A stretch of 64,000 nucleotides of DNA. It comes from Deltaproteobacteria bacterium. Its GTDB lineage: Bacteria > Desulfobacterota > GWC2-55-46. Shown one piece after another: positions 10,132 through 57,579 of the stretch. How positions within the stretch are numbered: the first letter of the stretch is position 1; each line of letters begins with the position of its first letter. The DNA lies in contig JACRNL010000011.1 in NCBI GenBank assembly GCA_016234935.1, positions 129,472 to 193,471 of the forward strand, in the 5' to 3' direction. Below the pieces are notes generated by a model that was not told the origin of the DNA, made no database searches, and saw only the letters and a list, made by a program, of their open reading frames with translations. The position numbers and the translations under genes were made by a program.

Positions 10132-10146
10132 GTTTTTTTAAATCAA

Positions 10147-14737: not shown

Positions 14738-14738
14738 A

Positions 14739-17107: not shown

Positions 17108-17122
17108 AGAGAGGTTTCTTGC

Positions 17123-18671: not shown

Positions 18672-18697
18672 CAGGTAAAATCTTCTATTGCGGGGGG

Positions 18698-20198: not shown

Positions 20199-22310
20199 AT
20201 GCCGGGTTATGTCAAGGATGTTTTGTGCGGCAAGCGTATTTATATGAAAATCAGGTTTTACAGCTATTTCGGCGCCCTGCAGGTGATGTCGGTCTTTTTG
20301 TCAGGGGCGGGAAAGGAGATATACTATTTCGATATATCCGCGGCAGGCAAGGCCTTGCTTGGCCTCTTGAATATGAAAGGCCGCGTCAAGCCTTTTGAGT
20401 TCATCTTAGCCGAAGTAAAGGATTCAACCGGTCAGAGTTATTTCCCGAGGATATACGGAAGAGATATCGTGGCCGTATGCGACGTGATAGAGAATGACGT
20501 ATTCAGGAAAAACCCTCTAATAGACGCGCTTGGAAATATCTTTGACAGGGAAAAGATAATCCTGTATTTCAGAAAGATCGCAGGCAAGGAAATAGCCGAA
20601 AATATCGCATTCTTAAATGTTATTTCGTGGCACTGCCAAACGGTATCGGGCAATAAGCCTGATGCCGTTGAGTTTTTTATAGAGAGCACGGCGTACTACA
20701 GGGCGTTAAGAGATTTTGCGCTGAGAGAGCACCGGATATCGCTTGGCTGGCAGGTCTCCTCAAGAAAGATGTTCAGGTTTTTTTACCCGCTAATTGGGAA
20801 TGTGTTCCTTTCGGTTCTGCTGTGTTTTAGACCGCTTGCAAGCTTTTTTAGCACGACAAAAAAGCTGCCATCAGATAAATCCAGGCCGGTTCTTGCCAGT
20901 TTATATACTGTCAGGGGATTGACCTTTGACCGCACGAAGCGCTGCGATTTCCCCTGGCTGCTCATGTCTGAAATGTCACGCGAGCAGATATTGATCTATT
21001 TCGACAGAAAGGACCTGCCGGTCACGGACGATATGGCTGAGTTGCTGAGGCGGCAGGGTGTCAACTGCATGGCGATGTCTGCCGAGGCAACCAGCGTAAG
21101 CGGGATGCCTGTTTTCGTCCCTTCGTTCGTAACCGTGAAAAAGCTCCTCAGGCAGACCGGCCGTGTTTTATTTGCCGCTTTTAAAGAGGCATCCCGTCTC
21201 AGGTTGCGCTCATTAGTTTATTTGAGCGCTGGCATTCGTTTCGCGAGAGAATATTCCGTTGCATACGATTTTTACCTTTCCAATAATATTAAGATAAATA
21301 TGGATTTTATTGATTTTGACCCCAACCGGATACCGAGGAGCCTTGCGCTGAGAGACGCGGGCGGGGTAAGCATAAGCTATCAGGTGTCTAACTGGCCCAT
21401 ACCCAACGTGATACTTGGCACGGGCGCGGATATCTTTTTCATGTTCGGGCCGCACTATTTGAAAAATTTTCTTAAAGGCGGCGCCTGTAATGACGCCGTT
21501 GTTTATACCGGATATACGTCTGATTATTCATTTGCCGCAGTTAAGGAAAGGGCAAGGGATTTGCGGGAGAGGCTTGTGGGGAGCGGTGCGCAGTTTGTGG
21601 TCGCTTATTTCGATGAGAACTCCGCCGGGGGCAGGATGAGCATCATCCCGCATAAAACAGCCGCGGTAATCTATAAAAGACTTTTGGAGCTGGTCGTAGC
21701 GGATGGAACCATTGGTCTTATTTGCAGCCCTAAGCGCCCCAAGACCCTTCTTAAGCGAATGCCGGAGCTTTCATCTCTTTTGAAAAAGGCAAAGGATACG
21801 GGCAGGTGTCTGTTTATCGAGGGAGAATACGCCACTGACAAATATCCTGCCGAATCAGCGCAGGCCTCAGACCTTGTGATAACTTTATTGATAGGCGGCA
21901 CTACGGCGCTGGAGAGCCACCTTTGCGGCCAAAGGGCGGTCTTCCTTGATCTGGAAGGGTTTTATTCCTACACGGAATATGAATGGGGCAGGAACACCAT
22001 CGTCTTTGACGATATGGACGCTCTAATATCGGCTATCGAAAGATTCCGGCAGGATGGGCAGGCAAACGACGCGCTGGGCAATCCCGCGCTGATACGAACG
22101 CTTAATGAAAAAGATCCGTTCCGCGACGGGAAGGCCGCCGAAAGGATGGGGCAGTATCTGAACTGGCTGCTTGAGGCCTTTAACCAGGGCGGGACAAGGC
22201 AGGACGCGATCGCGTCCGCCAACAGCAAATATGCGGAGCAATGGGGCAAGGAAAATATCGTAAGGCTTGAATATCCGGCAGGGAGCCGTTTGTCGCCGGA
22301 TAAGGATTGA
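20199..22310 (+). CDS. Large hypothetical protein with GT-B-like C-terminal signature (putative glycosyltransferase), 703 aa
   Basis: C-terminal ...DLVITLLIGGTTALESHLCGQRAVFLD resembles the GT-B donor-binding motif. Lower GC than its flanks. No other motif recognised. Confidence 0.45.
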   Translation: MPGYVKDVLCGKRIYMKIRFYSYFGALQVMSVFLSGAGKEIYYFDISAAGKALLGLLNMKGRVKPFEFILAEVKDSTGQSYFPRIYGRDIVAVCDVIENDVFRKNPLIDALGNIFDREKIILYFRKIAGKEIAENIAFLNVISWHCQTVSGNKPDAVEFFIESTAYYRALRDFALREHRISLGWQVSSRKMFRFFYPLIGNVFLSVLLCFRPLASFFSTTKKLPSDKSRPVLASLYTVRGLTFDRTKRCDFPWLLMSEMSREQILIYFDRKDLPVTDDMAELLRRQGVNCMAMSAEATSVSGMPVFVPSFVTVKKLLRQTGRVLFAAFKEASRLRLRSLVYLSAGIRFAREYSVAYDFYLSNNIKINMDFIDFDPNRIPRSLALRDAGGVSISYQVSNWPIPNVILGTGADIFFMFGPHYLKNFLKGGACNDAVVYTGYTSDYSFAAVKERARDLRERLVGSGAQFVVAYFDENSAGGRMSIIPHKTAAVIYKRLLELVVADGTIGLICSPKRPKTLLKRMPELSSLLKKAKDTGRCLFIEGEYATDKYPAESAQASDLVITLLIGGTTALESHLCGQRAVFLDLEGFYSYTEYEWGRNTIVFDDMDALISAIERFRQDGQANDALGNPALIRTLNEKDPFRDGKAAERMGQYLNWLLEAFNQGGTRQDAIASANSKYAEQWGKENIVRLEYPAGSRLSPDKD

Positions 22311-22314
22311 TGCA

Positions 22315-23787
22315 ATGTCCCTCGGCGAAAAGAACATAAGAAACTTCTTCATCTACATCTTTCCGAAGTTCGTCGGCTACGGGGTGCAGTTCGTTACGCT
22401 TCCGATCCTGACGCGCATACTTTCCCCTGCGGACTTCGGCGTCGTGACGATGACCATGCTCTTTGCAACGCTCGGGGCAAGCGTCCTTACGCTCGGGATA
22501 ACCTCCGCCGCTCAAAGATACTATTTTGAGTATAAGCCCGGCGGAGACGGCCTGAACGCGCTGGTGTTTTCCTCCCAGCTCTTTTTGTATCTCATGCTGG
22601 CGGTTTCTTCGGCAGCCGCCTTTTTCTTCAAGGACCGTGTCGCGCTCCTGATTACCGGAGACGCAAAGTATGGCACAGCCGTCTTCCTTATGTTCATCGC
22701 CGGGTACCTCGGACAGGTCATTAATTTTTATCTTTATATGTACCAGAACATGGAAAAGGCGTCGTGGCACTCGGCCTTCAACATTTCAAGGAGCGTCCTG
22801 ACGGGCGCTTTGAGCCTGCTGCTCGTCTGGCATTTCAGGATGTCCTACATGGGGATGATCTGGGCGTCCCTTGCGGCCACGGCCGCAGTGTGCCTTGCCA
22901 TGTTCGTGCTGTTTAACAGGGGTTTTACTTTCCGCTTGAGCTTTAGGGTGCTGATTGACAATATAAAGTTCGGGCTTCAGATAGTGCCAAAGTCGCTTAC
23001 GGGCTTCATAAACCTGTATTTTGACAAGTATATGATAAACAACATGCTCTCGCTCTCCGCGGTGGGCGTCTACAACATAGGGCAAAGCGTAGGCAATCTC
23101 GCCTTTTTCTTGATGAGTGCCATCTGGTCTTCTTTTCAGCCGGTCTATTACAGGGACGTCTTTGACCGGGGGGCCGAGGCATCGGGGAACGTGGGCAGGA
23201 TATTCACCATATTCGCCTACATATCGCTGGCGCCGCTCCTTGTCCTGATACTCTTTGCGGGAGAGGCGCTGTCCGTAATAGCCCCGCCCGCGTATTACGG
23301 CGCGCTCGACGTGATAATAATCATTTCCGCCGGCGTGGCCACGCAGACCTTCGGCATGTATGTCGGCGTGCAGTATGCCTACACCAAAAAGGCTTATTGG
23401 CTCTTTCCGATAACCGTTGCAGGGACCATAGTGAACGTGATTGCGAACGTCATCCTTATCCCGCGTCTGGGGCTTACGGGCGGCGCCGTCTCCTCGGCGC
23501 TTTCCACGGCGGCCTTTAACGTCATAGCGATAGCAATAGGCCAGAGGATTTACAGGATCGGGTATGAATGGAAGCCGATAGCGGTCTTATACGCGCTGAT
23601 AGCGCTGGCAATACCTTCGGCGCTCTACGTAAGGACGGATGCCTTCCCGTTCGCCGTTGTCTACGGCATTAAGCTCTCGCTCATAGCGTTCTATCTTTTT
23701 GCCGGGATAAAGACGCGTATAATAACAGAGACTTCGATTAAAAAGGTCGCCGGTTCACTGTTTAACTACCGGAGGAAGGAGGCCTGA
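22315..23787 (+). CDS. wzx: Wzx-like oligosaccharide flippase (MOP/polysaccharide biosynthesis protein family)
   Basis: About 490 aa with 12-14 TM helices throughout. Start at ATG 22315, just after the upstream stop. Confidence 0.75.
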   Translation: MSLGEKNIRNFFIYIFPKFVGYGVQFVTLPILTRILSPADFGVVTMTMLFATLGASVLTLGITSAAQRYYFEYKPGGDGLNALVFSSQLFLYLMLAVSSAAAFFFKDRVALLITGDAKYGTAVFLMFIAGYLGQVINFYLYMYQNMEKASWHSAFNISRSVLTGALSLLLVWHFRMSYMGMIWASLAATAAVCLAMFVLFNRGFTFRLSFRVLIDNIKFGLQIVPKSLTGFINLYFDKYMINNMLSLSAVGVYNIGQSVGNLAFFLMSAIWSSFQPVYYRDVFDRGAEASGNVGRIFTIFAYISLAPLLVLILFAGEALSVIAPPAYYGALDVIIIISAGVATQTFGMYVGVQYAYTKKAYWLFPITVAGTIVNVIANVILIPRLGLTGGAVSSALSTAAFNVIAIAIGQRIYRIGYEWKPIAVLYALIALAIPSALYVRTDAFPFAVVYGIKLSLIAFYLFAGIKTRIITETSIKKVAGSLFNYRRKEA

Positions 23788-23790: not shown

Positions 23791-24687
23791 ATGAAGGACG
23801 CGTGCAACCTGTGTTTGTCGGATGGTTTTGAGCTTGTAAAATCTGCGCTGCGCGACCAGGGCGCGGAGCAAAAGGTTTATAGATGCCTTGCTTGCGGACA
23901 TGTTCAGCTCCTGCCGAGGCCGACGGCCGAGGAGGATAGCGCCTTTTACGACGCTAACCGTCAGGACAGAAACAGGGGTAAGGAGATAGATTACGAAAGG
24001 CTCCGGCTGAACAACCTCTTTGATACGGAAAGACATGTTAGTCTTATAAAAGGGCTTTGCGCGGACAAGGGTTCGCGGATACTTGATATCGGGGCGGGCT
24101 ATGGGTTTTTCGTCAACAGGCTCTACGGTGCCGGATACACAAAAGCAATGGGTATAGAGGTGAGTGAAGAAAGGCGGGCTATGGCCGTAAACCGCGGGCG
24201 CGCGGAGATTATCGACTTCGATGTTTTAAGCCCAGGGTGTGACATCGGCAGGTTCGCCATTGTAACGCTTTTTCACGTGCTGGAGCACATGGCCGACCCT
24301 GTTGCATTTTTAAGGGGTATTAAGGGCCTGCTAAGCGACGGCGCTGTCTTTGTATGTGAGGTGCCTAACGTAAACGAACTTCTTCTTGAGAGATCTAAGA
24401 CGTACAACGATTTTTATTGGATACGGGCTCACCTTAATTACTTTAGCGCCAAGACACTTGTTGATTGTTTTACAAAGGCAGGTTACGCGGGCGTACAGAT
24501 GCGCTTTGAACAGAGGTATGGGCTTTTGAATATGTGTAACTGGCTTTCAAAAGGCACGCCGCAGATAGACCATCCGGTATTCGAAATAGACGGCGCGTAT
24601 AAGCCGGTTGAGGATTTTTACAGGGAGCATCTTGCGTCAATGAGAAAGACGGACACGATAGTCGCGGTTGCAGGGCTGAAAAAATGA
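23791..24687 (+). CDS. Class I SAM methyltransferase with N-terminal CxxC...CxxC zinc ribbon
   Basis: CNLC...CLACGH zinc ribbon, then motif I ILDIGAGYG. 298 aa. Confidence 0.75.
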   Translation: MKDACNLCLSDGFELVKSALRDQGAEQKVYRCLACGHVQLLPRPTAEEDSAFYDANRQDRNRGKEIDYERLRLNNLFDTERHVSLIKGLCADKGSRILDIGAGYGFFVNRLYGAGYTKAMGIEVSEERRAMAVNRGRAEIIDFDVLSPGCDIGRFAIVTLFHVLEHMADPVAFLRGIKGLLSDGAVFVCEVPNVNELLLERSKTYNDFYWIRAHLNYFSAKTLVDCFTKAGYAGVQMRFEQRYGLLNMCNWLSKGTPQIDHPVFEIDGAYKPVEDFYREHLASMRKTDTIVAVAGLKK

Positions 24688-26624
24688 AGTATGTAGTAAT
24701 TGAGTTCATTGACGAATATAAGGCTTTTATAGAGTTTCTCGGTAAAGGTAAAGGCCGGCTTGAGGATTACGTCATAGTAGCCATTGAGCCAAAGCTCGAG
24801 GCCTATCTTGAGGCCAATGGCGTGAGATATCGCAATACCCTTAATTATTTCGACACCGGATCCCAAAAAAGGATATTGAGAGCGACCGAGAAGGTAATGG
24901 AGTATATAGAGAGAAACTTCACTTTTACGGATTCCGGCGGGCTCAGGAGCTGTTACGAAAAGGAGTTCGCGCATTATGTAAGGTTGTATATGAATCATAT
25001 GTTCAAGATGTTGGAGATATTCGGTGGTATTCGCGCGGAGGACAGCGGTTGTGAGTTATACGCGTGCGGAGGCGGTTCAATGACCGCGACTGCCATTATG
25101 TCGGACGATGAGAGATATCTCGCAAGGCTGGCGGCAGGCTTCGCTGATGCGCATAATCTTAGTTTTACGGATTTCAATGGAGATGCATCGGTATCCGCCG
25201 CGCCGGTTAGAGGCGGCTATGTAAATTCGGCAAATTTCGTTGTAAAACTCCTCAGCAGGGCAACGTTGTCGCTTTTTACCGGTAAAAAGACGATTTTTGT
25301 GCCGCGAATGGGGCATGTTTTCAAAGACATGGCAAAGCGGTTGTCGGCAAAGGACAGGCGAGTGGTCTTTGTGGCAATAGACTATACGGAAGGTTTTCTA
25401 TATGCGGCGGTCTTTAACGCGCTTTCTTTCTTCAAGTCGCTAACGGGGAGACAGCCATATAGAAATTATATCGTCAACGTGAATTTTTTCCGCAGCGCCG
25501 TATCTCATGACGAGTGTGAAAGATTGACGCAATGTGTTGATTCCATCGTCGAGCGCGGCGGACTGTTTGAATATAATGGCGTAGATTGCCGGGCGTTGAT
25601 TAAAATGAAGGTGGACGCAGGGCTTAAAGCCCACCTTTTGCGCATGCTCCACAGCTCGCATAATCTCAGTTATATGTTCGGCAGGATGAAAAGGTGGATG
25701 GTGATGTCGTTTTCCGGGCTCGACGCGATGGCCGTGGCCGGGGAGCTTACAAGAAGGCTCGGCGAAAGGTCTTTGTTTGTTTCCCACGGCGCGCATCCGG
25801 CGCCGTCGGATGAGTATCATGAAATAGAGCTTTTACGGCTGTGCAGGAGTTTCATGCTCAGCGACTACACGCACGTTGCTCTGAGCAGTCCCGTGCAGGA
25901 GGAGCATCTTCGTTACTTTAAGCGCAAATACGATTGGGTCGGTAATATTGAATTGAAGACAGGTCCGCTGGTTTTTGCCGACGTGATGGATATGGATAAA
26001 TCCGAAAGCAAAATAAGACTGGGCATACCTCCGGGCAACATTGTGCTGACTCATGCCACGACCACCAAGGCAAGGCACGGCGAAAGGTATTATTTTCTCG
26101 AAACATTGGATGAGTTTTTTGCGAGCCTTTCTGATATTGTCCGGTGCGTGGATGAGCGCCGCGGCGTGAGCCTGATAATAAGGGTCCATCCGGGGTTCCG
26201 TTTGAATGATGAAGAGATAAAAGCGCTTTTGCCGGCGTCTGCGAAATTCATTATACACAGGGATGGCCCCTTTAGCGAGGCGCTCTCGGCCACGGACGTC
26301 CTTATAAGTTATTCTTCGACCGCTATAGACGAGGCGCTCATGAATAAAATCCCGGTCTTGCTTTACGACAGGTGGAGCAGGTATAATCATTTCAAGACAG
26401 GTGTTTTTGAGGGGTCTTCGTCGCCGGATATTTTTCCTGTATGTTATGTGAACGCAAGAGAAAAACTGGCCGGAGCGGTTGAATATATGCTGGGAAAGAC
26501 CATGGCTGTTGATAAAAAAGATTTTGACAATGGCAGGTTCCGCTACTCGGAAGATTATTCCGAAAACCTCTTTAAGTTCGTTGAGGGCTCCTTGAATGCG
26601 CGTCAGCCCGGAGGGTTGCCATGA
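24684..26624 (+). CDS. Large hypothetical protein with GT-B-like C-terminal signature (putative glycosyltransferase), 646 aa
   Basis: C-terminal ...VLISYSSTAIDEALMNKIPVLLYD is a TagF/GT-B-like donor-domain motif. AT-shifted composition. Confidence 0.5.
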   Translation: MKYVVIEFIDEYKAFIEFLGKGKGRLEDYVIVAIEPKLEAYLEANGVRYRNTLNYFDTGSQKRILRATEKVMEYIERNFTFTDSGGLRSCYEKEFAHYVRLYMNHMFKMLEIFGGIRAEDSGCELYACGGGSMTATAIMSDDERYLARLAAGFADAHNLSFTDFNGDASVSAAPVRGGYVNSANFVVKLLSRATLSLFTGKKTIFVPRMGHVFKDMAKRLSAKDRRVVFVAIDYTEGFLYAAVFNALSFFKSLTGRQPYRNYIVNVNFFRSAVSHDECERLTQCVDSIVERGGLFEYNGVDCRALIKMKVDAGLKAHLLRMLHSSHNLSYMFGRMKRWMVMSFSGLDAMAVAGELTRRLGERSLFVSHGAHPAPSDEYHEIELLRLCRSFMLSDYTHVALSSPVQEEHLRYFKRKYDWVGNIELKTGPLVFADVMDMDKSESKIRLGIPPGNIVLTHATTTKARHGERYYFLETLDEFFASLSDIVRCVDERRGVSLIIRVHPGFRLNDEEIKALLPASAKFIIHRDGPFSEALSATDVLISYSSTAIDEALMNKIPVLLYDRWSRYNHFKTGVFEGSSSPDIFPVCYVNAREKLAGAVEYMLGKTMAVDKKDFDNGRFRYSEDYSENLFKFVEGSLNARQPGGLP

Positions 26625-27286
26625 GGACAGTCGGATTTATCCCATCGAAATTGAATAGTGAACGGGTGCCTTTAAAGAACATAAAAGATCTGGGCGGCAT
26701 TCCTCTTATTAACTACACCGTGTGCACGCTGAACAAGGTCGCGGCTGTGGACGAGATAGTCATTTTCGCCTCAGAGCCGTCCATCTGCGATTACGTGCAG
26801 CATGGCCTTAAATACAAGTTTATCCAAAGGCCGGCCTGCCTCGATACGCAGGAGGCGACGATACAGGATATCATCCGTGAGTTTTTGAAAAGGGACAGCG
26901 CTGACACGGTGGTGCTCATGCACTGCACCTCGCCTTTCCTAAAATCAGCGACAATCGCGGACTGCGTTGAAAAGGTCAACTCCGGCCGATACGAATCCGC
27001 ATTTACGGCCAATGAGATAAAAAAGTTCTGCTGGTTCAAGGGCAACCCGCTGAACTATTCCCTCTCGAAGCCGACCCCGCGCACGCAGGACATTGCCCCT
27101 GTAATAGTCGAGCAGTCGAGCCTTTATGTTTTTAAACGCGAGGTCTTTGAAAAGACCGGCCAGCGCATTTCCGACAGGCCCTATGTCAAGGCGATAGACC
27201 ATTTCGAGGGGCATGACATTGACACGCCGGAGGACTTCCGCGTGGCGGAATTGATAGTCAACACGGGTATGTTCGAGCTTTCATGA
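26621..27286 (+). CDS. pseF: CMP-pseudaminic acid synthetase PseF (acylneuraminate cytidylyltransferase family)
   Basis: MRTVGFIPSKLNSERVPLKNIKDLGGIPLINYTV NeuA-type N-terminus. 221 aa. Confidence 0.85.
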   Translation: MRTVGFIPSKLNSERVPLKNIKDLGGIPLINYTVCTLNKVAAVDEIVIFASEPSICDYVQHGLKYKFIQRPACLDTQEATIQDIIREFLKRDSADTVVLMHCTSPFLKSATIADCVEKVNSGRYESAFTANEIKKFCWFKGNPLNYSLSKPTPRTQDIAPVIVEQSSLYVFKREVFEKTGQRISDRPYVKAIDHFEGHDIDTPEDFRVAELIVNTGMFELS

Positions 27287-28434
27287 CAATAACGAACTGC
27301 TCCATATTTAAAAGATATCCTGTTTCTTTCGGTTCATCCGGCGTCAGCGCGGGCTATGAGATACTCGTCGGCAGGGGTATAACCCCGGCCATTGCAGATT
27401 TCCTCGCGCAAAAGACGAAGGACGACAGAGTCATTGTCGTCTGCGACGACTATTTCAAGGGGCGCATCGCTTCTTTGACAGATGCGCTCGCAAAGGCCGG
27501 CTTTAGCGTAAACGTTTACAGCTTCGAGGGCGGCAAGCACCACAAGAACATCAACGAGGCAATGCGCATATACGAGGCGCTGGAAAAGAGTGACTTCGCG
27601 CGCGATTCGACCATGATAGCCGTCGGAGGCGGCGTCATAGGAGACCTCGCGGGCTTCGTGGCAAGCACCTACTTGAGGGGGATGAACCTCATACACGTCC
27701 CGTCGTCGCTGACCGCGATGATAGACTCTTCCATAGGCGGCAAGGTCGCCATAAACTTCAGAAAGACGGTCAACGCCATCGGCAACTACTACCATCCGAT
27801 ATTAAATGTCATTGACCTTGACTTTATGGACACGCTGCCGCCGAGGGATTATCTTGCCGGGCTTGCGGAGATAATCAAATGCGCGGTGATAGCCGACAAA
27901 GAGCTTTTCGATTACCTCGACGTCAACTCCGAAGCGGTGCTCCGGCGTGAGGAAGTTGCGCTTTTGAAGATAATCTACCGCGCCATAGAGATAAAGCTCG
28001 ACCATGTGAGGGATGACGTAAGGGAGCAGAGTATAAGGCTGAAGCTGAACTACGGGCATACGATGGGCCATGCCGTGGAGATTTCTACCGGCATGTTTGA
28101 AGAGGTCTACAGGCACGGCGAGGGCGTTGCCATCGGCATGGTCGGGGCGGCGCATATCGCGAGGGCGTTTTTAAAGCAGGGCGATGAAATATTAAAGAGG
28201 CATGAGGCGGTGCTTGAAAAATACGGCCTGCCGGTTAAGTGCGCATCCGGCGCTATCGGGTTTGATGCTGATTTGCTAAAAAAGGAATGCCTTAGAAATA
28301 TCTTCAAGGATAAAAAGAAAAAGGACGCGATGCTTCGCTTTGTCCTGCCGGTTGCGATAGGCAGGTGCGAGGTATACGCGGGGATACCGGACGAGATGCT
28401 TCAGAAGGCGTTTGACTACATAATAGGCCAATGA
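27283..28434 (+). CDS. 3-dehydroquinate synthase-like sugar-phosphate cyclase family protein
   Basis: GGGVIGDLAGFVASTYLRGMNLIHVPSSLTAMIDSSIGGKVAINF is the DHQS-family NAD and metal site. 383 aa. Sits inside the glycan operon, not an aro context. Confidence 0.75.
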   Translation: MTITNCSIFKRYPVSFGSSGVSAGYEILVGRGITPAIADFLAQKTKDDRVIVVCDDYFKGRIASLTDALAKAGFSVNVYSFEGGKHHKNINEAMRIYEALEKSDFARDSTMIAVGGGVIGDLAGFVASTYLRGMNLIHVPSSLTAMIDSSIGGKVAINFRKTVNAIGNYYHPILNVIDLDFMDTLPPRDYLAGLAEIIKCAVIADKELFDYLDVNSEAVLRREEVALLKIIYRAIEIKLDHVRDDVREQSIRLKLNYGHTMGHAVEISTGMFEEVYRHGEGVAIGMVGAAHIARAFLKQGDEILKRHEAVLEKYGLPVKCASGAIGFDADLLKKECLRNIFKDKKKKDAMLRFVLPVAIGRCEVYAGIPDEMLQKAFDYIIGQ

Positions 28435-28462
28435 TGACGGTGAAAGACATTATTTCAAAATT

Positions 28463-28511
28463 CCCCTTAACCCCTTGAAGGGGCTGAGCCCCCTCAGGGG
28501 GTTAAGCCCCC
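28463..28511. repeat. Dispersed palindromic repeat family R1 (ccccttgaagggg / cccccTCAggggg units)
   Basis: Seen directly. Related copies at 33708-33734, 37877-37913 (inverted) and 58748-58788. Here followed by ggggggaag + T7, which is terminator-like. Confidence 0.85.
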
Positions 28512-28539
28512 TTTTACAAAGGGGGGAAGTTTTTTTATT

Positions 28540-28616
28540 CCTCCCCAGCACCACTTTCCGTTACTGGCATATGTATCTAATAGAAATGTTGGCGCCGGAA
28601 AGTGGTGCTGGGGAGG
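28540..28616. promoter_or_regulatory. Perfect 21-bp-stem inverted repeat (cctccccagcaccactttccg ... cggaaagtggtgctggggagg) with a 35-nt AT-rich loop, 16 nt upstream of the SDR gene start
   Basis: Seen directly. A degenerate short-loop version recurs at 63253-63305. Confidence 0.7.
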
Positions 28617-28632
28617 GTAGGGAGGATTTACG

Positions 28633-29421
28633 ATGTCGCAGTGTGGCAGGGGGGAGATGACGGACAAAAGATTTTCCATAAAAGACAGGGTCTGCGTTGT
28701 AACAGGCGCGGGCAAGGGCATCGGCAGGGAGACTGCAAGGCTCTTTTATGAAGAAGGGGCTTTCCTCGCGCTCATCACGAGGGACGGCAAAGACCTGCAA
28801 TCGCTTAAGACGGAGCTTGACCTTGATGACAGGCGCGTCCTCTTGTTTGAGGGCGACGTGTCCGATGAAAAGACCGTCAAAAGATTCATTGCCGAGGCCG
28901 CTGAAAAATTCGGCAGGATAGACGTCCTTGTAAACAACGCGGGCATGAGGTTTAGAAAAAAGCTCCTTGAGACAACGCCTGACGAATGGGCGCGGGTGAT
29001 GAACACGAACCTTACGAGCGTCTACCTCATGTGCCGCGAGGCAGGCCCGCACATGATAAGGCAGAAATGGGGCAGGGTCATAAACATCGCGTCCGTCATC
29101 GGAACGCTCGGCCTTGCCGAGCTTACGGCGTACGGCGCGTCAAAGGGCGGGATGCTAACGTTCACGAAGTGCCTCGCGCTCGAATGGGCGGGGCATAACA
29201 TAAACGTCAACGCCGTTGCCCCGGGCTTTTGCGAGACATCCTACGCTGAAAGTTTTAAAAAGAAAGAGGAGCTTTATAAATTCACCATCGAGAGAACGCC
29301 GCAGAAAAGGTGGGGCTCGTCAGCCGACGTGGCGGCGGCATGCCTTTTCCTGGCCTCCGGGGAGGCATCCTTCATAACCGGAGAGGTGCTGAGCGTGGAC
29401 GGCGGGTGGAGCGCATGGTAG
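28633..29421 (+). CDS. SDR family oxidoreductase (FabG-like)
   Basis: TGAGKGIGRE Rossmann motif and catalytic Y/K region (AYGASK). SD gggagg 7 nt upstream. Confidence 0.8.
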   Translation: MSQCGRGEMTDKRFSIKDRVCVVTGAGKGIGRETARLFYEEGAFLALITRDGKDLQSLKTELDLDDRRVLLFEGDVSDEKTVKRFIAEAAEKFGRIDVLVNNAGMRFRKKLLETTPDEWARVMNTNLTSVYLMCREAGPHMIRQKWGRVINIASVIGTLGLAELTAYGASKGGMLTFTKCLALEWAGHNINVNAVAPGFCETSYAESFKKKEELYKFTIERTPQKRWGSSADVAAACLFLASGEASFITGEVLSVDGGWSAW

Positions 29422-29465
29422 GCGATGAGCGTGGAACGACCGTTCAACCTGGAAGGGGTTTCTAA

Positions 29466-30896
29466 TTGAAGATACTGTTTATTCTGCCGGACGTTGATTC
29501 GTTCCACAGGCTTAATATACACTTCGGGATAGCCACCCTTGCCGGGTTTCTAAAGGCCAACGGCTATAACGACATTAGATTTCTTGCGGTTACGAGCGTA
29601 GAGGACTATGCGCGCATAATACGCGAGGTGGAGGCGTATAAGCCCGATATCGTAGGGTTTACATCCGTTGAGACGCAGTTCAAGCATGTTATCGCCCTTT
29701 CAGAGAAGATAAAAGAGGCGCATAAATGCATCGTCGTGCTCGGCGGGGTCTTCATCACGCTATTTCCTGAGAGCGTCAAGGACGCAAAGGCCCTTGACGG
29801 GGCCTTTAAGGGCGAGAGCGAACAGGCGCTGCTTAATTTCGTCCGGGCCGTTGAAAATGGGGCGGATTACAGGCAGGTTAATAACTTCTGTTATTACGAT
29901 GAAAAGGAAGGCAGGGTCATCCAGAACAGGCTGTCGCCAATGGAGGACAACCTCGACCTTTTTGGAATACCCGACCGCGGGATATTCGATTTCCAGAGCG
30001 TCATCGACTCCTACGGCGGGGCCGCGCCATTCATGTTCAACCGCGGCTGTCCGTATAACTGCTCGTTTTGCTCCAACCACGCGCTGGCATCCGTCTACGG
30101 CAGGCTGAGCAACAAGACCAGGAGAAGGAGCGTTGACCTGTGCATAAAAGAGATAAAGGGCGTCACTTCGAGCTATAAGCTCGAAGTCATACATGTCTGG
30201 GACGATCTTTTCACATCGCACAGGAAGTGGATGCAGGAGTTCCTTGATAAATACAAAAAAGAGGTCGGGCTGCCTTTCATGTGCACGACGCGGTCAAACC
30301 TCTGCGATGAAGAGCTCTTTAAGGCCCTTAAAGACGGCGGCTGCTACAGGGTGCACATGAGTCTTGAGTCAGGCAACGACTTTGTAAGAAATAAGGTCAT
30401 GAGGAGAAATATCTCAAAGGCGCAGATAGAAAAGTCGTTCGGCCTTGCCCGTAAATACGGAATCGAGGTCAGCGCGTCTTCCATCATCGGTCTGCCGTTT
30501 GAGACCCCGGAAATGATAGATGAGACTATCGGCCTCCTGGGCTCGCTCAAGGTGGAAAGCTGCGGGGTGAATATCTTTCATCCGTATAAGGGTACGCACC
30601 TTTACAAGGTCTGCGAGGAATACGGGATGCTTGTTAAGGAGGATGAGATGCATGGCATCATGGAAAGAAGGGAGAGCATATTGAATCTCCCGCATGTAAG
30701 CAGGGAGAAGCTCAAGCATTACTTTGACAATTTCGAGATGTTGGTGAGGCAGAAGGAAGGCGCCCTGCCTTACCTTAAATGCAGGCTGAAGGCGACCGCG
30801 AAGAAGCTTCTCCCTGAGACCATACAGGGCGTGATAAGGAAGGCACGTAAAAAGAAAGGCAGAGTGCAGGACTTTCCGGACGGTCTTGAGGAATGA
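29466..30896 (+). CDS. Cobalamin (B12)-binding radical SAM protein, class B
   Basis: N-terminal B12-binding domain. CxxxCxxC motif CPYNCSFC. 476 aa. TTG start. Confidence 0.8.
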   Translation: MKILFILPDVDSFHRLNIHFGIATLAGFLKANGYNDIRFLAVTSVEDYARIIREVEAYKPDIVGFTSVETQFKHVIALSEKIKEAHKCIVVLGGVFITLFPESVKDAKALDGAFKGESEQALLNFVRAVENGADYRQVNNFCYYDEKEGRVIQNRLSPMEDNLDLFGIPDRGIFDFQSVIDSYGGAAPFMFNRGCPYNCSFCSNHALASVYGRLSNKTRRRSVDLCIKEIKGVTSSYKLEVIHVWDDLFTSHRKWMQEFLDKYKKEVGLPFMCTTRSNLCDEELFKALKDGGCYRVHMSLESGNDFVRNKVMRRNISKAQIEKSFGLARKYGIEVSASSIIGLPFETPEMIDETIGLLGSLKVESCGVNIFHPYKGTHLYKVCEEYGMLVKEDEMHGIMERRESILNLPHVSREKLKHYFDNFEMLVRQKEGALPYLKCRLKATAKKLLPETIQGVIRKARKKKGRVQDFPDGLEE

Positions 30897-30909
30897 TAGA
30901 AGGTATGGC

Positions 30910-31680
30910 ATGAGCCGCATCATGAACGGCATTAAGAGAAGGCTCAGGAATATCTCCAAGCTCAAGGGCGCGTGGAGGCCCGGGTTTTTGTGGCTTTATA
31001 AAAACCGTTATCTCCGTATGGACGCCAACGTCGACATAAACGACTTAAGGCGGCGGCGCTTCCATCTGGACCGCTACGAGTTCGCCGCGCGCTCGATACA
31101 GGAGATTAAAAAGGCGGGCGCGTCCATACTCGACGCCGCATGCGGCACCGGCTACGGGACGAATATCCTTGAAAAGAGCGGGGCAGGGCGCGTGATAGGC
31201 GTTGACATAAGCCCTGAGGCAATAGAATACGCGCAGAAGAAATACGGTAGCGGAGTCGCGTCTTTTAAGGCGTCGGACGTGAGTAAGCTCGATAAGGCCG
31301 CGCTTTGCGCGGACGGCTTTGACGCTGTCGTGTCGTTCGAGACCATAGAGCATATCGATGATCCGCTGGCATTTTTAAAGTGCGTAGCCGGCCTGCTTAA
31401 AAAAGACGGCATCTTCATAGTCTCCACCCCGAATAAATGGGGCGTAACAAAAGACCACAAGATAGACTACGATTACGGGTTGTTCAGGGATCATCTGGAA
31501 AAGTTTTTTGAAATAGAATCCATATGGGCGCAAAACAGCGGCTGCATGGAGGAGTGGATAAACAGGGGACAGGAAAGAAGGCTCATAAGGGCGGCTCCGC
31601 AGAATATCGAAGAGGCCGAATGTTTTCTCGCCATATGCAGGCAAAAGTCAACAAAGCCCGCGGACGCTGAAAAAAGATGA
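30910..31680 (+). CDS. Class I SAM-dependent methyltransferase
   Basis: Motif I ILDAACGTGYG. Start chosen at ATG 30910 (SD gaagg). The ORF is also open from 30886. Confidence 0.7.
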   Translation: MSRIMNGIKRRLRNISKLKGAWRPGFLWLYKNRYLRMDANVDINDLRRRRFHLDRYEFAARSIQEIKKAGASILDAACGTGYGTNILEKSGAGRVIGVDISPEAIEYAQKKYGSGVASFKASDVSKLDKAALCADGFDAVVSFETIEHIDDPLAFLKCVAGLLKKDGIFIVSTPNKWGVTKDHKIDYDYGLFRDHLEKFFEIESIWAQNSGCMEEWINRGQERRLIRAAPQNIEEAECFLAICRQKSTKPADAEKR

Positions 31681-32708
31681 CCGTAATGGCAGACATAGAC
31701 GCAGGGCCGCCTATTTTCCGGCACACAGGCAGGGCGCACATCAGGCTCGGCAAGGGGCAAAAGGCCGTCCGCGACGCGCTCATTGGAAAACTTGATCAAG
31801 GTATATACCGGCTTGAAGAGGTCAAGTGCCTGTGCGGCATGACGGAGGATGTTGTTATTTCCGAGACCGACAGATACGGTCTGCCGCTTAAGACCGTCAT
31901 ATGCACTTACTGCGGCCTTCTGAGGACAAACCCGAGGCTTGACGCAGGTTCGCTTGACGGTTTCTACGCGAACGAATACCGGGACCTGTACATGGGGGCC
32001 GACTACGGCGACATGGACAGCTACTTTCTCGACATGGCCGCAAGGGGACGGGAAGCGCTTGACCTCATTAGAAAGACCGCGCCCTGGGTTGACCTGAAAA
32101 AGGCCGATGTGCTTGAGGTCGGCTGCTCCGCCGGCGGCGTGCTCTTTCCTTTTCTCGAGGCGGGCGCAAGGGTCAAGGGGTTTGACCATGACAGGCGCTA
32201 TCTGGATTACGGCAATAAGCGGGAACCGGCATTGAATCTTCTGCCGGGCGGCGTGGAAACGCTTGAAAAGGAAGATTGCAAATACGATATCATCTTGATA
32301 AACCACGTCATGGAGCACCTTGCCGATCCCGCGGGCGCGGCCTCGGCGGCAAGAAAGAGGCTCAAGCCGGGCGGGCTTTGCTATGTCTCCGTGCCCGGCC
32401 TGAAGAACCCCGCTTACTACAACAGCCCCGTAAAAAGTTTTTTAGGCTCGCTTCACATAGGGCATCTATGGCATTTTTCAAGGCTGACGCTTCGGCGCCT
32501 GTTAAAGGACTTTGACATGCTTTATATAGACGACGAAGTGCGGGCCGTATGCGCCTTGTCGCGGGCGGGAAGAGTTGAAAAGGATTTTCCGTCAGAGTAT
32601 GCATCGAACATGGAATTTATCCGGGACTATGAAAATGCCTTTGCGTGGAAGTTAAGGCGCGCAAGGAACGTCATTAGAAATATCCGCCATTTGATCAAGC
32701 TCGTGTAG
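31677..32708 (+). CDS. Class I SAM methyltransferase with N-terminal zinc ribbon
   Basis: CLCG...CTYCG zinc ribbon, then motif I VLEVGCSAGG. 343 aa. Same architecture as 23791-24687. Confidence 0.7.
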   Translation: MTVMADIDAGPPIFRHTGRAHIRLGKGQKAVRDALIGKLDQGIYRLEEVKCLCGMTEDVVISETDRYGLPLKTVICTYCGLLRTNPRLDAGSLDGFYANEYRDLYMGADYGDMDSYFLDMAARGREALDLIRKTAPWVDLKKADVLEVGCSAGGVLFPFLEAGARVKGFDHDRRYLDYGNKREPALNLLPGGVETLEKEDCKYDIILINHVMEHLADPAGAASAARKRLKPGGLCYVSVPGLKNPAYYNSPVKSFLGSLHIGHLWHFSRLTLRRLLKDFDMLYIDDEVRAVCALSRAGRVEKDFPSEYASNMEFIRDYENAFAWKLRRARNVIRNIRHLIKLV

Positions 32709-32743: not shown

Positions 32744-33673
32744 ATGTCAAAAATACCGGAACCGGTAAAATACATAGGCAAAAAATATATCCTCAACCTC
32801 ATCAAGAGGAAGAGGCTCGCGGCTCCGCCTTTTCCGCCCGAGTTGTGGATAGAGAACACCAACCACTGCAACGCGCGGTGCGTTATGTGTCCGCGCGATC
32901 TGCACACGCGCCCTCTGGGCATCATGAAGCTTTCTTTGTTTACGCGGCTCATGAGCGAGGCGTCCGCGCACGCCGCGAAAATAAAGAGGGTGCACCTGCA
33001 TAATTACGGAGAGCCGCTCTTGGACAAAGACCTGCCTGAGAGGATAAGGCTGGCTAAAAGGGCCGGCATAAAAGAGGTCTATTTTGTCACCAACGCGTCG
33101 CTCCTTACTCCCGAAAAATCGAAAGAGATAATCGAAGCGGGCCTTGATGAGTTCAAGATAAGTTTTTACGGCACGGACAGGGAAACTTACAACGCGACGA
33201 TGAGGGAGCTTGATTTTGACAGGTCTATCCAGAACGTCAGAGATTTCTTCAGCGTGCGCCGGAAGCTCAAGGCCCGGCGTCCCGGCGTCATCATCCAGTA
33301 TCTCGTCCAGCCGTTGAATATGGCCAAGACAGGGGAGTTTCTTGCAATATTCAAGCCGCTTGTAAATAAAGAGCTTGGCGACAGCCTCAGCATATGCCAT
33401 CTGCATAACTTCGGCGGCGGGCGTGATTACAGGAAGACGGCGAGGATTTCCGGCATCTGCAACTATCCGTGGCGGACGATAGTCATCCTGCACGACGGAA
33501 GGGTCGTGACATGCTGTCTGGATTATAACGGCCTGCAGGTAATGGGCGACGTCAACAAACAAACGATAGAGGAGATATGGAACGGGGACGCCTACCAAAA
33601 GGCAAGGGAGAGTTTCAAGAGGCTTGACTACGGCGGCTATCCTGTGTGCTTAAAGTGCGACATAATAAGATAA
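32744..33673 (+). CDS. Radical SAM protein with C-terminal SPASM/twitch-like Cys cluster
   Basis: CxxxCxxC motif CNARCVMC. C-terminal Cys-rich segment ...VTCCLDY...YPVCLKCD. 309 aa. Confidence 0.75.
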   Translation: MSKIPEPVKYIGKKYILNLIKRKRLAAPPFPPELWIENTNHCNARCVMCPRDLHTRPLGIMKLSLFTRLMSEASAHAAKIKRVHLHNYGEPLLDKDLPERIRLAKRAGIKEVYFVTNASLLTPEKSKEIIEAGLDEFKISFYGTDRETYNATMRELDFDRSIQNVRDFFSVRRKLKARRPGVIIQYLVQPLNMAKTGEFLAIFKPLVNKELGDSLSICHLHNFGGGRDYRKTARISGICNYPWRTIVILHDGRVVTCCLDYNGLQVMGDVNKQTIEEIWNGDAYQKARESFKRLDYGGYPVCLKCDIIR

Positions 33674-33769: not shown

Positions 33770-35590
33770 ATGATGAAAATAATCCGTTTGTCAGATATTG
33801 GAAGGCTTCCGGTCTTGGACGCGGCTAAGGCGCGTCAATGCTGTTTTGTTGACCTTATAGGCGGCCTCGTGCGTCGCGGCGGCGCGCCTGTGCGCGGCGG
33901 CATCAGGGAGATAAGGCTTGAAGGGCTTACGCCGGCGGAGAAGAAAATCTGCCGGCTGGATTATATCGACGCGATAGCCGGGCTTGGCGCGGACTTTTCC
34001 TCGCCTGAGTGGTGGGCAAACGCAGCCTCTGAAAAAAACGAGCACACGTCAGAGCACTTTAAAAACCTGTGTCTGTTTTACTTACTTGTAAAGGCCCTGA
34101 AGGCTGTTGATGACGTAATCGTCTACGTCGTATGTAACGACGCGGTGGCCCTGCAGCTTTGGGCGTGGTGCGGCCGCGCAGGCATAAAGATAACCGGCGT
34201 GGGAAAGCGGCCCTTTGTTACGGGGCGGTTTGATGAAGGGGTAAGGACGTTTAAGGCAGTGAAGGCGGCCTTTGGTGTTGCTATAAGGGCGGTAGTCCGT
34301 AAACTCTACCTGTTCGTTGTCGCGGGGGCGCATATAAGAAAAAACCTTGACCGGACAAAGGACTATTATGTAATAAGGTCATGGATAAACAAGGACGCGC
34401 TCAGACAGTGCGTTTATGCGAAAGACCCGTATTTCGGCAGGCTCCCGGAGACGGCCGTTGAAAGGGGTTTTAATACGCTGATAGTCGCGGGCATACTAAA
34501 CAACTTCACTGAAACCGTCCGGGGATTGAAGAGAGTTGATGCACTTATCGTCCCTGAGGAATATTTTTTGAGCCTTTCTGATATCGTCCGTGCCTTGTTT
34601 CGTCTTAGCCTTAGAAGGACGCGCCTTAAAAGGCCAGTGATGTTCAGCGGAGTTGACGTATCGGCGATATACGAGGCCGAGATAGAAAAGGGGTATCTGG
34701 ACGCCTCTTACACAAAGAACATCCTCAGGTATTTCATTGCCGCAAGGCTTGCGTGTTCCATAAGGTTCGGCCTGTACACACAGACATATGAAAACTACGC
34801 GTGGGAAAAAATGATGATACTCGGCATACGTAAAAACAGGCCGCAGGCGAGGATACTCGGCTTCCAGCACGCGTTCGTGTCGGAGGATTCGTTCAAGTAT
34901 TTTACAGGCGCAAAGGAAAGGGATATCGCACCGCTGCCCGACGGTATCATCACAATGGGCAGGGCGACGAAAAATATTCTTCAAAGTTACGGCAATTACC
35001 CTGCGGGCATTTTGACCGAGGGATGCGCCCTCAGGCAGGAGTATCTTGCCGGGGTAAAGATTTTTAACAGGCGGCGCTTTGGCAGGGTGGTCGTGCCGCT
35101 GACCATGATCGCGAAGGAGAGCGCATTGACGCTTGATTTCCTTTGCTCGTCGGGCCTTGCGTCCTCGGGCATAAAGGTTATTGTAAGGTGCCACCCGGCT
35201 GCCCCGTTTGAGACCTTTCAAAGACTCCTTGCCGAGGAGTTGCCGGACAGCTTCGTCTTTGACAGCGCGCGGAGCGTTGAGGAGGAGTTGAGGCAATCAG
35301 ACATGGTGCTTTACACATGGACGACCGTGGCGGCGGAGGCGCTTAGGATGGGCCTGCCGGTCATTTACCTCGACGTGCTTTCTCCCCTGCGCGTTGATCC
35401 GCTCTTTGAATGCGATGCGCTTAAAAAAAGCGTCAGCGTGCCTGAAGGGCTTATTCCTGCGATGGATGGTTTTTATAACATGACGGACGAAGCGTTCAGC
35501 GCCGAGCAGGCCGGCGCGCAGAGTTATCTAAAGGATTATTTTTATCCGGTGACGCCGAAAAATCTTGCTCCATTTTTTCCAGGACAATGA
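33770..35590 (+). CDS. Large hypothetical protein with GT-B-like C-terminal signature (putative glycosyltransferase), 606 aa
   Basis: C-terminal ...SDMVLYTWTTVAAEALRMGLPVIYLD. Third member of the large-protein set, alongside the 20199 and 24684 genes. Confidence 0.45.
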   Translation: MMKIIRLSDIGRLPVLDAAKARQCCFVDLIGGLVRRGGAPVRGGIREIRLEGLTPAEKKICRLDYIDAIAGLGADFSSPEWWANAASEKNEHTSEHFKNLCLFYLLVKALKAVDDVIVYVVCNDAVALQLWAWCGRAGIKITGVGKRPFVTGRFDEGVRTFKAVKAAFGVAIRAVVRKLYLFVVAGAHIRKNLDRTKDYYVIRSWINKDALRQCVYAKDPYFGRLPETAVERGFNTLIVAGILNNFTETVRGLKRVDALIVPEEYFLSLSDIVRALFRLSLRRTRLKRPVMFSGVDVSAIYEAEIEKGYLDASYTKNILRYFIAARLACSIRFGLYTQTYENYAWEKMMILGIRKNRPQARILGFQHAFVSEDSFKYFTGAKERDIAPLPDGIITMGRATKNILQSYGNYPAGILTEGCALRQEYLAGVKIFNRRRFGRVVVPLTMIAKESALTLDFLCSSGLASSGIKVIVRCHPAAPFETFQRLLAEELPDSFVFDSARSVEEELRQSDMVLYTWTTVAAEALRMGLPVIYLDVLSPLRVDPLFECDALKKSVSVPEGLIPAMDGFYNMTDEAFSAEQAGAQSYLKDYFYPVTPKNLAPFFPGQ

Positions 35591-36465
35591 CGGCAGGTAG
35601 CATGAAGTCAAAATACAGTTCCACGAAAATGTTTATGCAGAGGCTCTCGGACAGGATGAAGGCGGTCAGCAACGTCTTCAGGAAGATGGCGCTTTCTACT
35701 CCTGTCGGCGCGAACCTTTCTCTCGGCCGCATGGAGAGGAAAAATCCTCTGTTCGAGGCCGTTGAGATAGAGACAACTACCATATGCAACAGGAAGTGCT
35801 CCTACTGTCCGAACGCGAATTTGGCAAGGCCGGCAAAAAACATGGACGAGGCGCTGTTTCGTTCCATCATAGACAGCCTCGGCGAGATAGGCTTTTCCGG
35901 CAGGGTCTCTCCGCACTTTTACGGCGAGCCTCTTGTTGACAAGCGTATACTGAAGTTTCTTGCGTACACGAGGGAAAGGCTCCCGAAGGCGCTTATAAAG
36001 CTCTTTACAAACGGCGACCTCTTGACCTATGAACTTTTTTTAAAGCTCCTTGACGCCGGGGTTGACGTGGTCAGGATAGCGCAGCATGATCCCCGGCCGC
36101 CGAAGACAGTTGTTGAAACTCTCAGGAGGATAAAAGAAAACGGCCTCATGCGGCATGTCGAGTACGTGAAGTATTATAATAATGAAAAGGATTTGACGAA
36201 CAGGGGCGGCCTCGTTGACGTGAAGCCGTCTAAAAGAAAGATATTCTGCGACTATGTCTCGTGCGCCACGGTGGACTACGAGGGGAACGTCCTTCTTTGC
36301 TGTCAGGACTATCTGTCCAAGCACAGGTTCGGGAATCTCAAAAAGGAAAGGCTCGTTGACGTATGGAACAACGCGCGCTACAAGGCGCTGCGTGACAAGA
36401 TAAAATGCGGCATGTGGCCGCTTGAGATATGCAGGGTTTGCGCCGGAGTGCGGAAGGCGTCCTGA
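35587..36465 (+). CDS. Radical SAM protein with C-terminal SPASM/twitch-like Cys cluster
   Basis: CxxxCxxC motif CNRKCSYC. C-terminal ...VLLCCQDY...CGMWPLEICRVCAG. 292 aa. Paralogous in architecture to the 32744 gene. Confidence 0.75.
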   Translation: MTAGSMKSKYSSTKMFMQRLSDRMKAVSNVFRKMALSTPVGANLSLGRMERKNPLFEAVEIETTTICNRKCSYCPNANLARPAKNMDEALFRSIIDSLGEIGFSGRVSPHFYGEPLVDKRILKFLAYTRERLPKALIKLFTNGDLLTYELFLKLLDAGVDVVRIAQHDPRPPKTVVETLRRIKENGLMRHVEYVKYYNNEKDLTNRGGLVDVKPSKRKIFCDYVSCATVDYEGNVLLCCQDYLSKHRFGNLKKERLVDVWNNARYKALRDKIKCGMWPLEICRVCAGVRKAS

Positions 36466-51995: not shown

Positions 51996-52010
51996 ACTGC
52001 GGGGGGTTTT

Positions 52011-56945: not shown

Positions 56946-56961
56946 ACGCGGCGAGGAAGAT

Positions 56962-57573: not shown

Positions 57574-57579
57574 GAGATT

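Follow-up and report, generated by a model that had tools for sequence, protein, structure and literature searches.

Candidate glycan-tailoring genes, with a B12-domain radical SAM enzyme and a zinc-ribbon methyltransferase, in two modules of a predicted pseudaminic-acid surface-glycan island

What do four neighboring genes, encoding a short-chain dehydrogenase/reductase (SDR), a B12-binding-domain radical S-adenosylmethionine (SAM) enzyme and two methyltransferases, contribute to the locus in which they lie? The genes occupy positions 28633-32708 of a 64,000-nucleotide stretch of Deltaproteobacteria DNA (assembly GCA_016234935.1, contig JACRNL010000011.1, positions 129,472 to 193,471 of the forward strand), which we refer to as the window and in which all coordinates below are given. 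An earlier note on this DNA had described them as one tailoring cassette, by implication part of a natural-product cluster. In our analysis the locus reads instead as a Wzx-dependent pseudaminic-acid (Pse) surface-glycan island, and the four genes straddle two modules: the SDR belongs to an upstream triad, and the radical SAM enzyme and the methyltransferases belong to a downstream block with a radical SAM/SPASM enzyme and a GT-B-fold protein. That the four genes encode glycan-tailoring enzymes in such an island, divided between two modules, is the best explanation as a whole, and we consider it fairly probable; the general reading (glycan tailoring in a surface-glycan locus) is held with good confidence, and the specific order of steps proposed below is tentative, such that we would sooner expect it to be revised than to stand.

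All four open reading frames (ORFs) were found where the earlier note had placed them:

28633..29421, + strand: classical SDR (262 aa; adh_short_C2, E=1.4e-68), third gene of a cytidylyltransferase/AroB-like/SDR triad
29466..30896, + strand: B12-binding-domain radical SAM enzyme of an uncharacterised subfamily, here B12rSAM2 (476 aa; PF02310 49.9 bits, PF04055 86.4 bits)
30886..31680, + strand: class I SAM-dependent methyltransferase (264-aa ORF; Methyltransf_31/23/11/25/12 above cut-off)
31677..32708, + strand: Cys4 zinc-ribbon plus class I methyltransferase, here ZnMT (343 aa; Methyltransf_23, E=1e-17)

Pfam matches and sequence motifs bear out every domain call of that note, and the other genes it named are present as well (a zinc-ribbon methyltransferase at 23791 with CxxC-x23-CxxC, a methyltransferase at 19399 and a first B12-domain radical SAM enzyme at 11362). 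The four genes are tightly packed, and the two methyltransferase genes share a 4-nt overlap (ATGA) that points to an operon. For the class I methyltransferase, a separate gene call on this DNA puts the likely start at 30922, giving a protein of 252 aa.

To type the locus, we ran Pfam and NCBIfam scans over every large ORF of the window. The region 9103-43819 (~35 kb, all on the + strand) is, judged by its gene content, a Wzx-dependent pseudaminic-acid surface-glycan island of a groundwater Deltaproteobacteria metagenome-assembled genome (MAG). Four proteins exceed the NCBIfam equivalog cut-offs, PseB (494 bits), PseC (511), PseG (308) and PseI (483), and the island is therefore not a secondary-metabolite cluster. 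It is predicted to make CMP-pseudaminic acid, and probably makes a second CMP-activated acidic residue as well. Its landmarks are the following:

9103..19255, + strand: Pse core, with PseB, PseC, B12-domain radical SAM enzyme no. 1, a GFO/IDH/MocA oxidoreductase, a cytidylyltransferase, a class III aminotransferase, PseG, PseI and a GNAT acetyltransferase (NCBIfam, Pfam)
22267..23787, + strand: Wzx-type flippase (Polysacc_synt 5.8e-24; 11 hydrophobic segments)

The island further encodes GT2 and GT4 glycosyltransferases, DegT and class III aminotransferases and, according to Pfam, dTDP-sugar genes (an RmlB-like dehydratase, nucleotidyltransferases and epimerases). Canonical PseF and PseH are not reached at the NCBIfam cut-offs. 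Divergent substitutes are present, namely two CTP_transf_3 cytidylyltransferase genes (13853-14737, without a PseF match, and 26621-27286, with 74.6 bits against a cut-off of 205.7) and a sub-threshold GNAT gene at 18653-19255 (44.9 bits against 93.1). Between PseC and PseG, at 11362-16037, the Pse core is interrupted by the B12-domain radical SAM enzyme, the GFO/IDH/MocA oxidoreductase, a KdsB-like cytidylyltransferase and a HemL-like class III aminotransferase, which suggests that the Pse precursor is modified further or that a third sugar is activated. The flanks of the island hold housekeeping or unrelated genes, including an Aas-like fusion, ABC transporters, RsmI, TrmFO, MacAB-TolC, a chaperone-usher pilus and cytochrome oxidase. 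We note that the Aas-like fusion, at the window edge (9-3311), joins, in a single protein of 1100 aa, a major facilitator superfamily (MFS) transporter, an acyltransferase and an AMP-binding acyl-ACP-synthetase-like part in the Aas/LplT-type architecture of lysophospholipid recycling, and that the chaperone-usher pair (PapD-like and usher, 51210-54398) is followed at 55344-60494 by the operon of a haem-copper oxidase and by a multihaem cytochrome c.

With homologues of B12rSAM2, ZnMT and a 606-aa protein encoded downstream of them, we collected and read related contigs, and searched each window protein against all loci by tblastn. Nine independent syntenic loci were identified, including loci from Deltaproteobacteria, Ignavibacteriae and Flavobacteria. 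Orthologues at 50-75% identity stand in the same order in at least 8 independent metagenomic loci of several phyla, so the arrangement is not a product of chance. In a scan of 185,579 species genomes only 7 loci were found, all in MAGs, and no cultured reference organism was among them. The presence of the genes across loci is as follows (L numbers denote loci other than the window):

Window, L002, L010, L017, L019: SDR directly after the AroB-like gene and the cytidylyltransferase (5 of the 5 loci with the SDR)
L009, L016, L020 in place of the triad, and L017 alongside it: alternative module of HMGL/MptE-like gene, PfkB kinase and cytidylyltransferase
Window, L002, L016, L018, L019, L020: B12rSAM2 followed by the radical SAM/SPASM enzyme and the 606-aa protein (6 loci)
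Window, L002, L016, L020: class I methyltransferase
Window, L016, L017, L020: ZnMT

The four genes thus fall in two separable, horizontally shared modules. Module B consists of the cytidylyltransferase, the AroB-like dehydroquinate synthase and the SDR; module C consists of B12rSAM2, an optional class I methyltransferase, an optional ZnMT, a BtrN-like radical SAM/SPASM enzyme and the 606-aa GT-B protein. The view of the genes as a single cassette does not survive this comparison. Their description as variable tailoring genes does, since methyltransferases come and go between loci and natural fusions occur. For example, ZnMT is present in L017 without the radical SAM enzyme or the class I methyltransferase, and in L019 three ORFs of ~350 aa stand in for both methyltransferases. 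One fusion (P0034) joins B12rSAM2 to a class I methyltransferase that is 50% identical to the one in the window, and another (P0144, 56% identity) joins ZnMT to a class I methyltransferase; the two fusions indicate that B12rSAM2, the class I methyltransferase and ZnMT are functionally linked. A Wzx flippase adjoins the module in 6 loci, and genes with a Wzy_C domain are found in L016 and L020. The alternative module (e.g. L016 4442-7179) encodes, besides a cytidylyltransferase and a PfkB kinase, a protein of 570 aa in which an HMGL-like aldolase is fused to an MptE/DUF115-like part, and it suggests a family of interchangeable keto-acid precursor modules.

What could module B supply? Its members upstream of the SDR, and the insert that splits the triad, are:

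26621..27286, + strand: CMP-ulosonic-acid synthetase-like cytidylyltransferase (CTP_transf_3, Pfam 4.5e-18; below the PseF cut-off as given above)
27283..28434, + strand: AroB-like 3-dehydroquinate synthase (DHQS) paralogue in a glycan locus (TIGR01357 318.6 bits, cut-off 305)
28435..28632, no strand: intergenic insert (palindromes of high GC content, a hairpin resembling a terminator, a perfect inverted repeat of 21 nt)

The triad is 59-76% identical in at least 4 other loci. The best solved relatives of the cytidylyltransferase are CMP-N-acetylneuraminic acid (CMP-Neu5Ac) synthetases, and the SDR carries its classical motifs in the translation (VTGAGKGIG for TGxxxGxG, NNAG, and YGASK for YxxxK). 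The AroB-like protein, which automatic annotation would label as housekeeping aroB, stands closer to genuine DHQS (201 bits) than to DOIS (the synthase of 2-deoxy-scyllo-inosose; 117) or to the EEVS ValA (a synthase of 2-epi-5-epi-valiolone; 112). The motifs DSSIGGK, NAIG, AEIIK, IKLD, RLKLNYGHTxGH, HGEGV and KDKK do not vary among 4 syntenic orthologues; going by the residue roles in A. nidulans DHQS, we take them to bind the metal, the phosphate and the carboxylate of 3-deoxy-D-arabino-heptulosonate 7-phosphate (DAHP). A 9-carbon phosphosugar as the substrate (terminal deoxygenation) was also considered and set aside, because the motifs that fix the carboxylate-phosphate distance of DAHP are all kept.

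The insert at 28435-28632 is the only sizeable gap inside the cassette. Its features are nested palindromes rich in GC (28466-28510), a hairpin that resembles a terminator and carries a T-run (28507-28525), and the perfect inverted repeat, CCTCCCCAGCACCACTTTCCG (21 nt), with arms at 28540-28560 and 28596-28616 and a spacer of 35 nt. A related hairpin lies in 63240-63310, with a copy of the arm (2 mismatches) at 63285-63305, where no copies would be expected by chance. In L002 the genes flanking the insert site overlap instead. Against Rfam, the intergenic hairpins gave only sub-threshold matches to generic (miRNA-type) hairpins. The insert looks like a small repeat, similar to repetitive extragenic palindromic (REP) elements or miniature inverted-repeat transposable elements (MITEs), placed between genes.

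In module C, both signature domains of B12rSAM2 are above their Pfam cut-offs (PF02310, in the N-terminus, with a cut-off of 32.1), and its CPYNCSFC motif (CxxxCxxC) provides three cysteines, C195, C199 and C202, that are invariant in 30 homologues. B12rSAM2 reaches no curated NCBIfam subfamily cut-off (HpnJ 117 bits against 577, BchE 111 against 481, PhpK 91 against 600). Methylation is a plausible candidate activity for B12rSAM2. The earlier note had counted at least six potential methyl-transfer steps in the locus; six is better taken as an upper bound, in which the four class I methyltransferases are secure and the two B12-domain radical SAM enzymes, which reach no methylase subfamily cut-off, are not. 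Two observations on related loci are added here. The radical SAM orthologue of L010 has an apparently degraded N-terminal B12 domain (the ORF has 353 aa, and stop codons fill the stretch upstream), and in L009 (a Flavobacteria MAG) a 318-aa ORF at 8631-9587, transposase-like by eye, lies between the PfkB kinase and the B12-domain radical SAM gene.

The glycine-rich motif I reads ILDAACGTGYG in one of the two methyltransferases and VLEVGCSAGG in the other. Neither classifies as an rRNA or tRNA methyltransferase, as matches to CmoB, RlmA-type, FtsJ and PrmA models are far under the cut-offs, and no NCBIfam model is matched at its cut-off by either. In ZnMT, a CxC-x22-CxxC pattern precedes the SAM domain, and each of its cysteines (C51, C53, C76 and C79) is at least 90% conserved in 32 homologues. 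The AlphaFold2 (AF2) model of ZnMT has a predicted local distance difference test score (pLDDT) of 90.8, with the predicted zinc region forming a small beta unit at 96-97. In a Foldseek search with this model, the top 18 PDB matches are all NDP-sugar C3-methyltransferases, MtmC, KijD1 or TcaB9 (E 7e-13 to 2e-10 and probability 1.00, but TM-scores of only 0.45-0.54 and 17-19% identity), followed by generic small-molecule methyltransferases at ~2e-8. ZnMT has no Pfam match to Methyltransf_13 (PF08421) or Methyltransf_14 (PF08484). Because it lacks these signatures and the C-terminal domain, we place ZnMT outside the C3-methyltransferase family, which it resembles in architecture.

The other zinc-ribbon methyltransferase of the island is the following:

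23791..24687, + strand: first zinc-ribbon methyltransferase, ancient paralogue of ZnMT (CxxC-x23-CxxC; alignment)

The zinc-ribbon regions of the two proteins align: hhalign with family profiles of 30 and 32 sequences matches them over 272 columns at a probability of 99.9% (E=2e-34) and aligns both Cys pairs. Their identity is 23% over 221 residues, and that of the two B12-domain radical SAM enzymes (11362 and 29466) is 24% over 408 residues (E=1e-23). The earlier note had seen in the zinc-ribbon pair the duplication and divergence of one methylase. Both pairs are homologous, but their members are ancient paralogues and not the outcome of a local duplication. The zinc-ribbon methyltransferases (51-61% identity) and B12rSAM2 (57-68%) have orthologues at the same relative position in other phyla, which makes the duplications ancient and places the split before the assembly of the locus.

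The genes that complete module C, and one more large protein of the island, are:

32744..33673, + strand: BtrN-like radical SAM/SPASM enzyme, constant downstream partner of B12rSAM2 (Pfam, synteny)
33770..35590, + strand: 606-aa GT-B-fold protein, putative CMP-sugar-acid transferase (no Pfam hit; AF2 pLDDT 87; TIGR04326 55.6 bits, below cut-off)
35587..36465, + strand: second radical SAM/SPASM enzyme, 25% identical to the first (Pfam)
24684..26624, + strand: 646-aa protein, accompanied in every case by the cytidylyltransferase and with a weak signature of a glycosyltransferase (BFO_1060 glycosyltransferase model 2.4e-5; DUF6716 0.0014; synteny)

The best solved relative of the first radical SAM/SPASM enzyme is BtrN (61 bits, E=9e-16). 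Pfam searches at E-values up to 10 returned almost nothing for the 606-aa and 646-aa proteins or for a third large protein of 703 aa. Structure prediction alone revealed a GT-B fold, and for the 606-aa protein only: in Foldseek, its model matches CalG1, NeuC-type epimerases and TagF. A distant relative of the 606-aa protein in L010 weakly matches the polysialyltransferase family PF07388, and the C-terminal part of the 646-aa protein is weakly similar to the 606-aa protein. Like the 646-aa protein, the 703-aa protein (20199-22310) is soluble and essentially without a Pfam match, and it resembles no assigned family. We note that the 703-aa and 646-aa proteins adjoin Wzx in other phyla too, with 31-61% identity.

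Taken together, these assignments allow a scheme for the second residue. Module B would supply a precursor acid: the AroB-like enzyme would act as a dehydroquinate synthase on DAHP or a near analogue of it (probable, because every DAHP-binding and catalytic motif is kept), the SDR would reduce the ketone arising from this step, and the NeuA-like cytidylyltransferase would convert the α-hydroxy or ulosonic acid to its CMP ester. In module C, B12rSAM2 and the radical SAM/SPASM enzyme would perform radical chemistry on unactivated carbons of the CMP-activated residue, most likely C-methylation in the case of B12rSAM2 and alcohol oxidation or epimerisation in the case of its partner. The two SAM-dependent methyltransferases may add O-, N- or enolate-C-methyl groups, with ZnMT probably working on a nucleotide-linked sugar as its structural neighbors do. 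The GT-B protein would then move the finished residue to a lipid-linked glycan, to be flipped by Wzx. In its boldest form the scheme implies a building block new to surface glycans, CMP-activated and placed beside Pse, which would be an ulosonic acid C-methylated or deoxygenated by radical chemistry, or else a quinate-like carbocycle, a 'carba-ulosonic' acid; this we regard as a long shot.

Several points weigh against this scheme. The functional assignments all draw on superfamily membership, fold and neighborhood. AprD4, the nearest solved relative of B12rSAM2, is a diol dehydratase that is not known to bind B12 or to methylate, and cobalamin binding by B12rSAM2 cannot be read from its sequence. 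Neither cytidylyltransferase reaches the PseF cut-off, so the scores do not single out the one that serves Pse. B12rSAM2 is found at 57-65% identity in L009, L016, L018 and L020, which are loci without the AroB/SDR pair, and its substrate therefore cannot strictly depend on the product of module B; it must be common to both precursor modules, and could be the Pse residue itself. Chemically, a carbocyclic acid esterified to CMP would make a poor glycosyl donor. Finally, the acceptor may be either a polysaccharide or a protein.

This last point leads to the alternative that fares best, in which the same enzymes serve general protein O-glycosylation like that of Tannerella forsythia or Campylobacter, with an S-layer, pilin or flagellin as the acceptor, and not an O-antigen or capsule. 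It is compatible with the same enzymology, and Pse is typical of protein glycans. The 646-aa protein matches the glycosyltransferase model of T. forsythia BFO_1060, although only with 23.6 bits against a cut-off of 200; the Wzy_C domains of related loci could belong to O-oligosaccharyltransferases; and the chaperone-usher pilus operon lies in the same window. On the other hand, flagellin, Maf/DUF115, S-layer and PglL-type genes are all absent from the window, and we judge this acceptor unlikely, while keeping it in sight. A flagellin glycosylation island in particular was considered and ruled out, with no flagellar or Maf genes in the window.

Less probable still is a deoxygenation pair, in which B12rSAM2 would be an AprD4-like radical 1,2-diol dehydratase and the SDR an AprD3-like ketoreductase, together removing a hydroxyl from a sugar or cyclitol with no C-methylation. 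The SDR gene does lie directly upstream of B12rSAM2, and when the family profile of B12rSAM2 is compared with solved structures, AprD4 is the best match (95 bits, E=4e-26; TokK and OxsB ~47). With the NCBIfam AprD4 model, however, B12rSAM2 scores 71 bits against a cut-off of 500, which ranks under HpnJ, BchE, ApyD and PhpK, and the P0034 fusion joins the radical SAM enzyme to a methyltransferase and not to a reductase. The SDR is found without the radical SAM enzyme in L017, and the radical SAM enzyme without the SDR in L009, L016, L018 and L020. Because the two are inherited separately, we downgraded the AprD4/AprD3 pair to an improbable reading.

A third alternative is that the genes tailor a diffusible aminoglycoside- or cyclitol-like secondary metabolite. 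It draws on the fact that the nearest characterised relatives of several of the enzymes come from antibiotic pathways (the sugar-phosphate-cyclase superfamily, BtrN, AprD4 and MtmC/TcaB9), and on the DegT and class III aminotransferases. Against it stand the Pse pathway, complete at equivalog level save PseF and PseH; the Wzx and Wzy_C genes of the related loci; the GT2, GT4 and GT-B transferases and dTDP-sugar genes; and the affinity of the AroB-like enzyme for true DHQS over DOIS and EEVS. Within 9103-43819 there is also no typical regulator, resistance gene or exporter. We consider this reading highly improbable. Recent local duplication of the zinc-ribbon methyltransferases and B12-domain radical SAM enzymes within the locus can draw on the homology of each pair along most of its length. 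It can hardly be right, since identity within the pairs is only 23-24% and each copy has its own orthologues in other phyla.

Glycan tailoring from two modules of a Pse island thus remains the preferred reading, and its interest lies in the kind of residue that might result. Nonulosonic acids such as Pse influence the recognition of bacterial surfaces by phages, by immune systems and by other cells, and mass-spectrometric surveys have revealed many unexplained nonulosonic-acid variants in environmental microbes. The locus offers candidate enzymes for such variants, in a portable and combinatorial set of radical SAM enzymes, methyltransferases, a cyclase repurposed from the shikimate pathway and an unclassified GT-B protein. 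The components are all of known superfamilies, and glycan-tailoring cassettes are already a known kind; no member of this tailoring set has a characterised orthologue, and the locus context raises the testable possibility of new sugar chemistry. If the novel building block proved true, this would be the first role of radical SAM/B12 chemistry in nonulosonic-acid glycan tailoring, and a widespread one in uncultivated phyla. Once products are shown, radical SAM/B12 chemistry would extend to surface-glycan tailoring, a new transferase family would be defined, and hundreds of metagenomic proteins now called 'hypothetical' or mislabelled (BchE, YgiQ, UbiG) could be annotated. If only ordinary methyl groups are added, the outcome would be a routine refinement of annotation.

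Three arrangements of the locus are without a characterised counterpart: the cytidylyltransferase/AroB-like/SDR triad, the block of B12-domain radical SAM enzyme, radical SAM/SPASM enzyme and GT-B protein, and the set of four radical SAM enzymes within a Pse locus. In full-text searches of a paper library we found no paper linking radical SAM enzymes with nonulosonic acids, and papers on dehydroquinate synthase with cytidylyltransferase, O-antigen or polysaccharide included none that describes the present system. Individual parts can be compared with known systems. With class B radical SAM enzymes (the methylases TokK, GenK and Fom3, and the non-methylating AprD4, HpnJ, BchE and OxsB), B12rSAM2 shares the B12-type Rossmann domain and the CxxxCxxC core; unlike them, it is found in a glycan locus, is under all subfamily cut-offs and has a relative fused to a class I methyltransferase; no characterised class B enzyme with a fusion of this kind is known to us. 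BtrN, a radical SAM dehydrogenase from the butirosin pathway that acts on a cyclitol hydroxyl, is like the radical SAM/SPASM enzyme a small radical SAM protein with an auxiliary-cluster domain, but the match covers only the radical SAM core, and the protein of the window has a full SPASM-type C-terminus and a glycan locus as its context. The cyclitol pathways of validamycin and acarbose also place a cyclase of the DHQS superfamily near a nucleotidyltransferase and a GT-B protein (in their case a pseudoglycosyltransferase), whereas the cyclase here is of the DHQS type with carboxylate-binding motifs, not an EEVS, and the nucleotidyltransferase is of the CMP-ulosonate type, not GlgC. TcaB9, MtmC and KijD1 (Methyltransf_13/14 architecture), which act on nucleotide-linked sugars and clearly surpass all other structures as matches to the ZnMT model, share with ZnMT the N-terminal Cys4 module and the class I SAM domain; with 405-420 aa they are longer than ZnMT (343 aa), which is 60-80 residues shorter and has no C-terminal Methyltransf_14 domain. 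At the level of the whole locus, the pse/ptm flagellin island of Campylobacter and the O-glycosylation locus of T. forsythia, for which no radical SAM enzymes or AroB paralogue are reported, share with the present island the Pse core, a cytidylyltransferase, class I methyltransferases and a large, non-canonical candidate for the nonulosonic-acid transferase.

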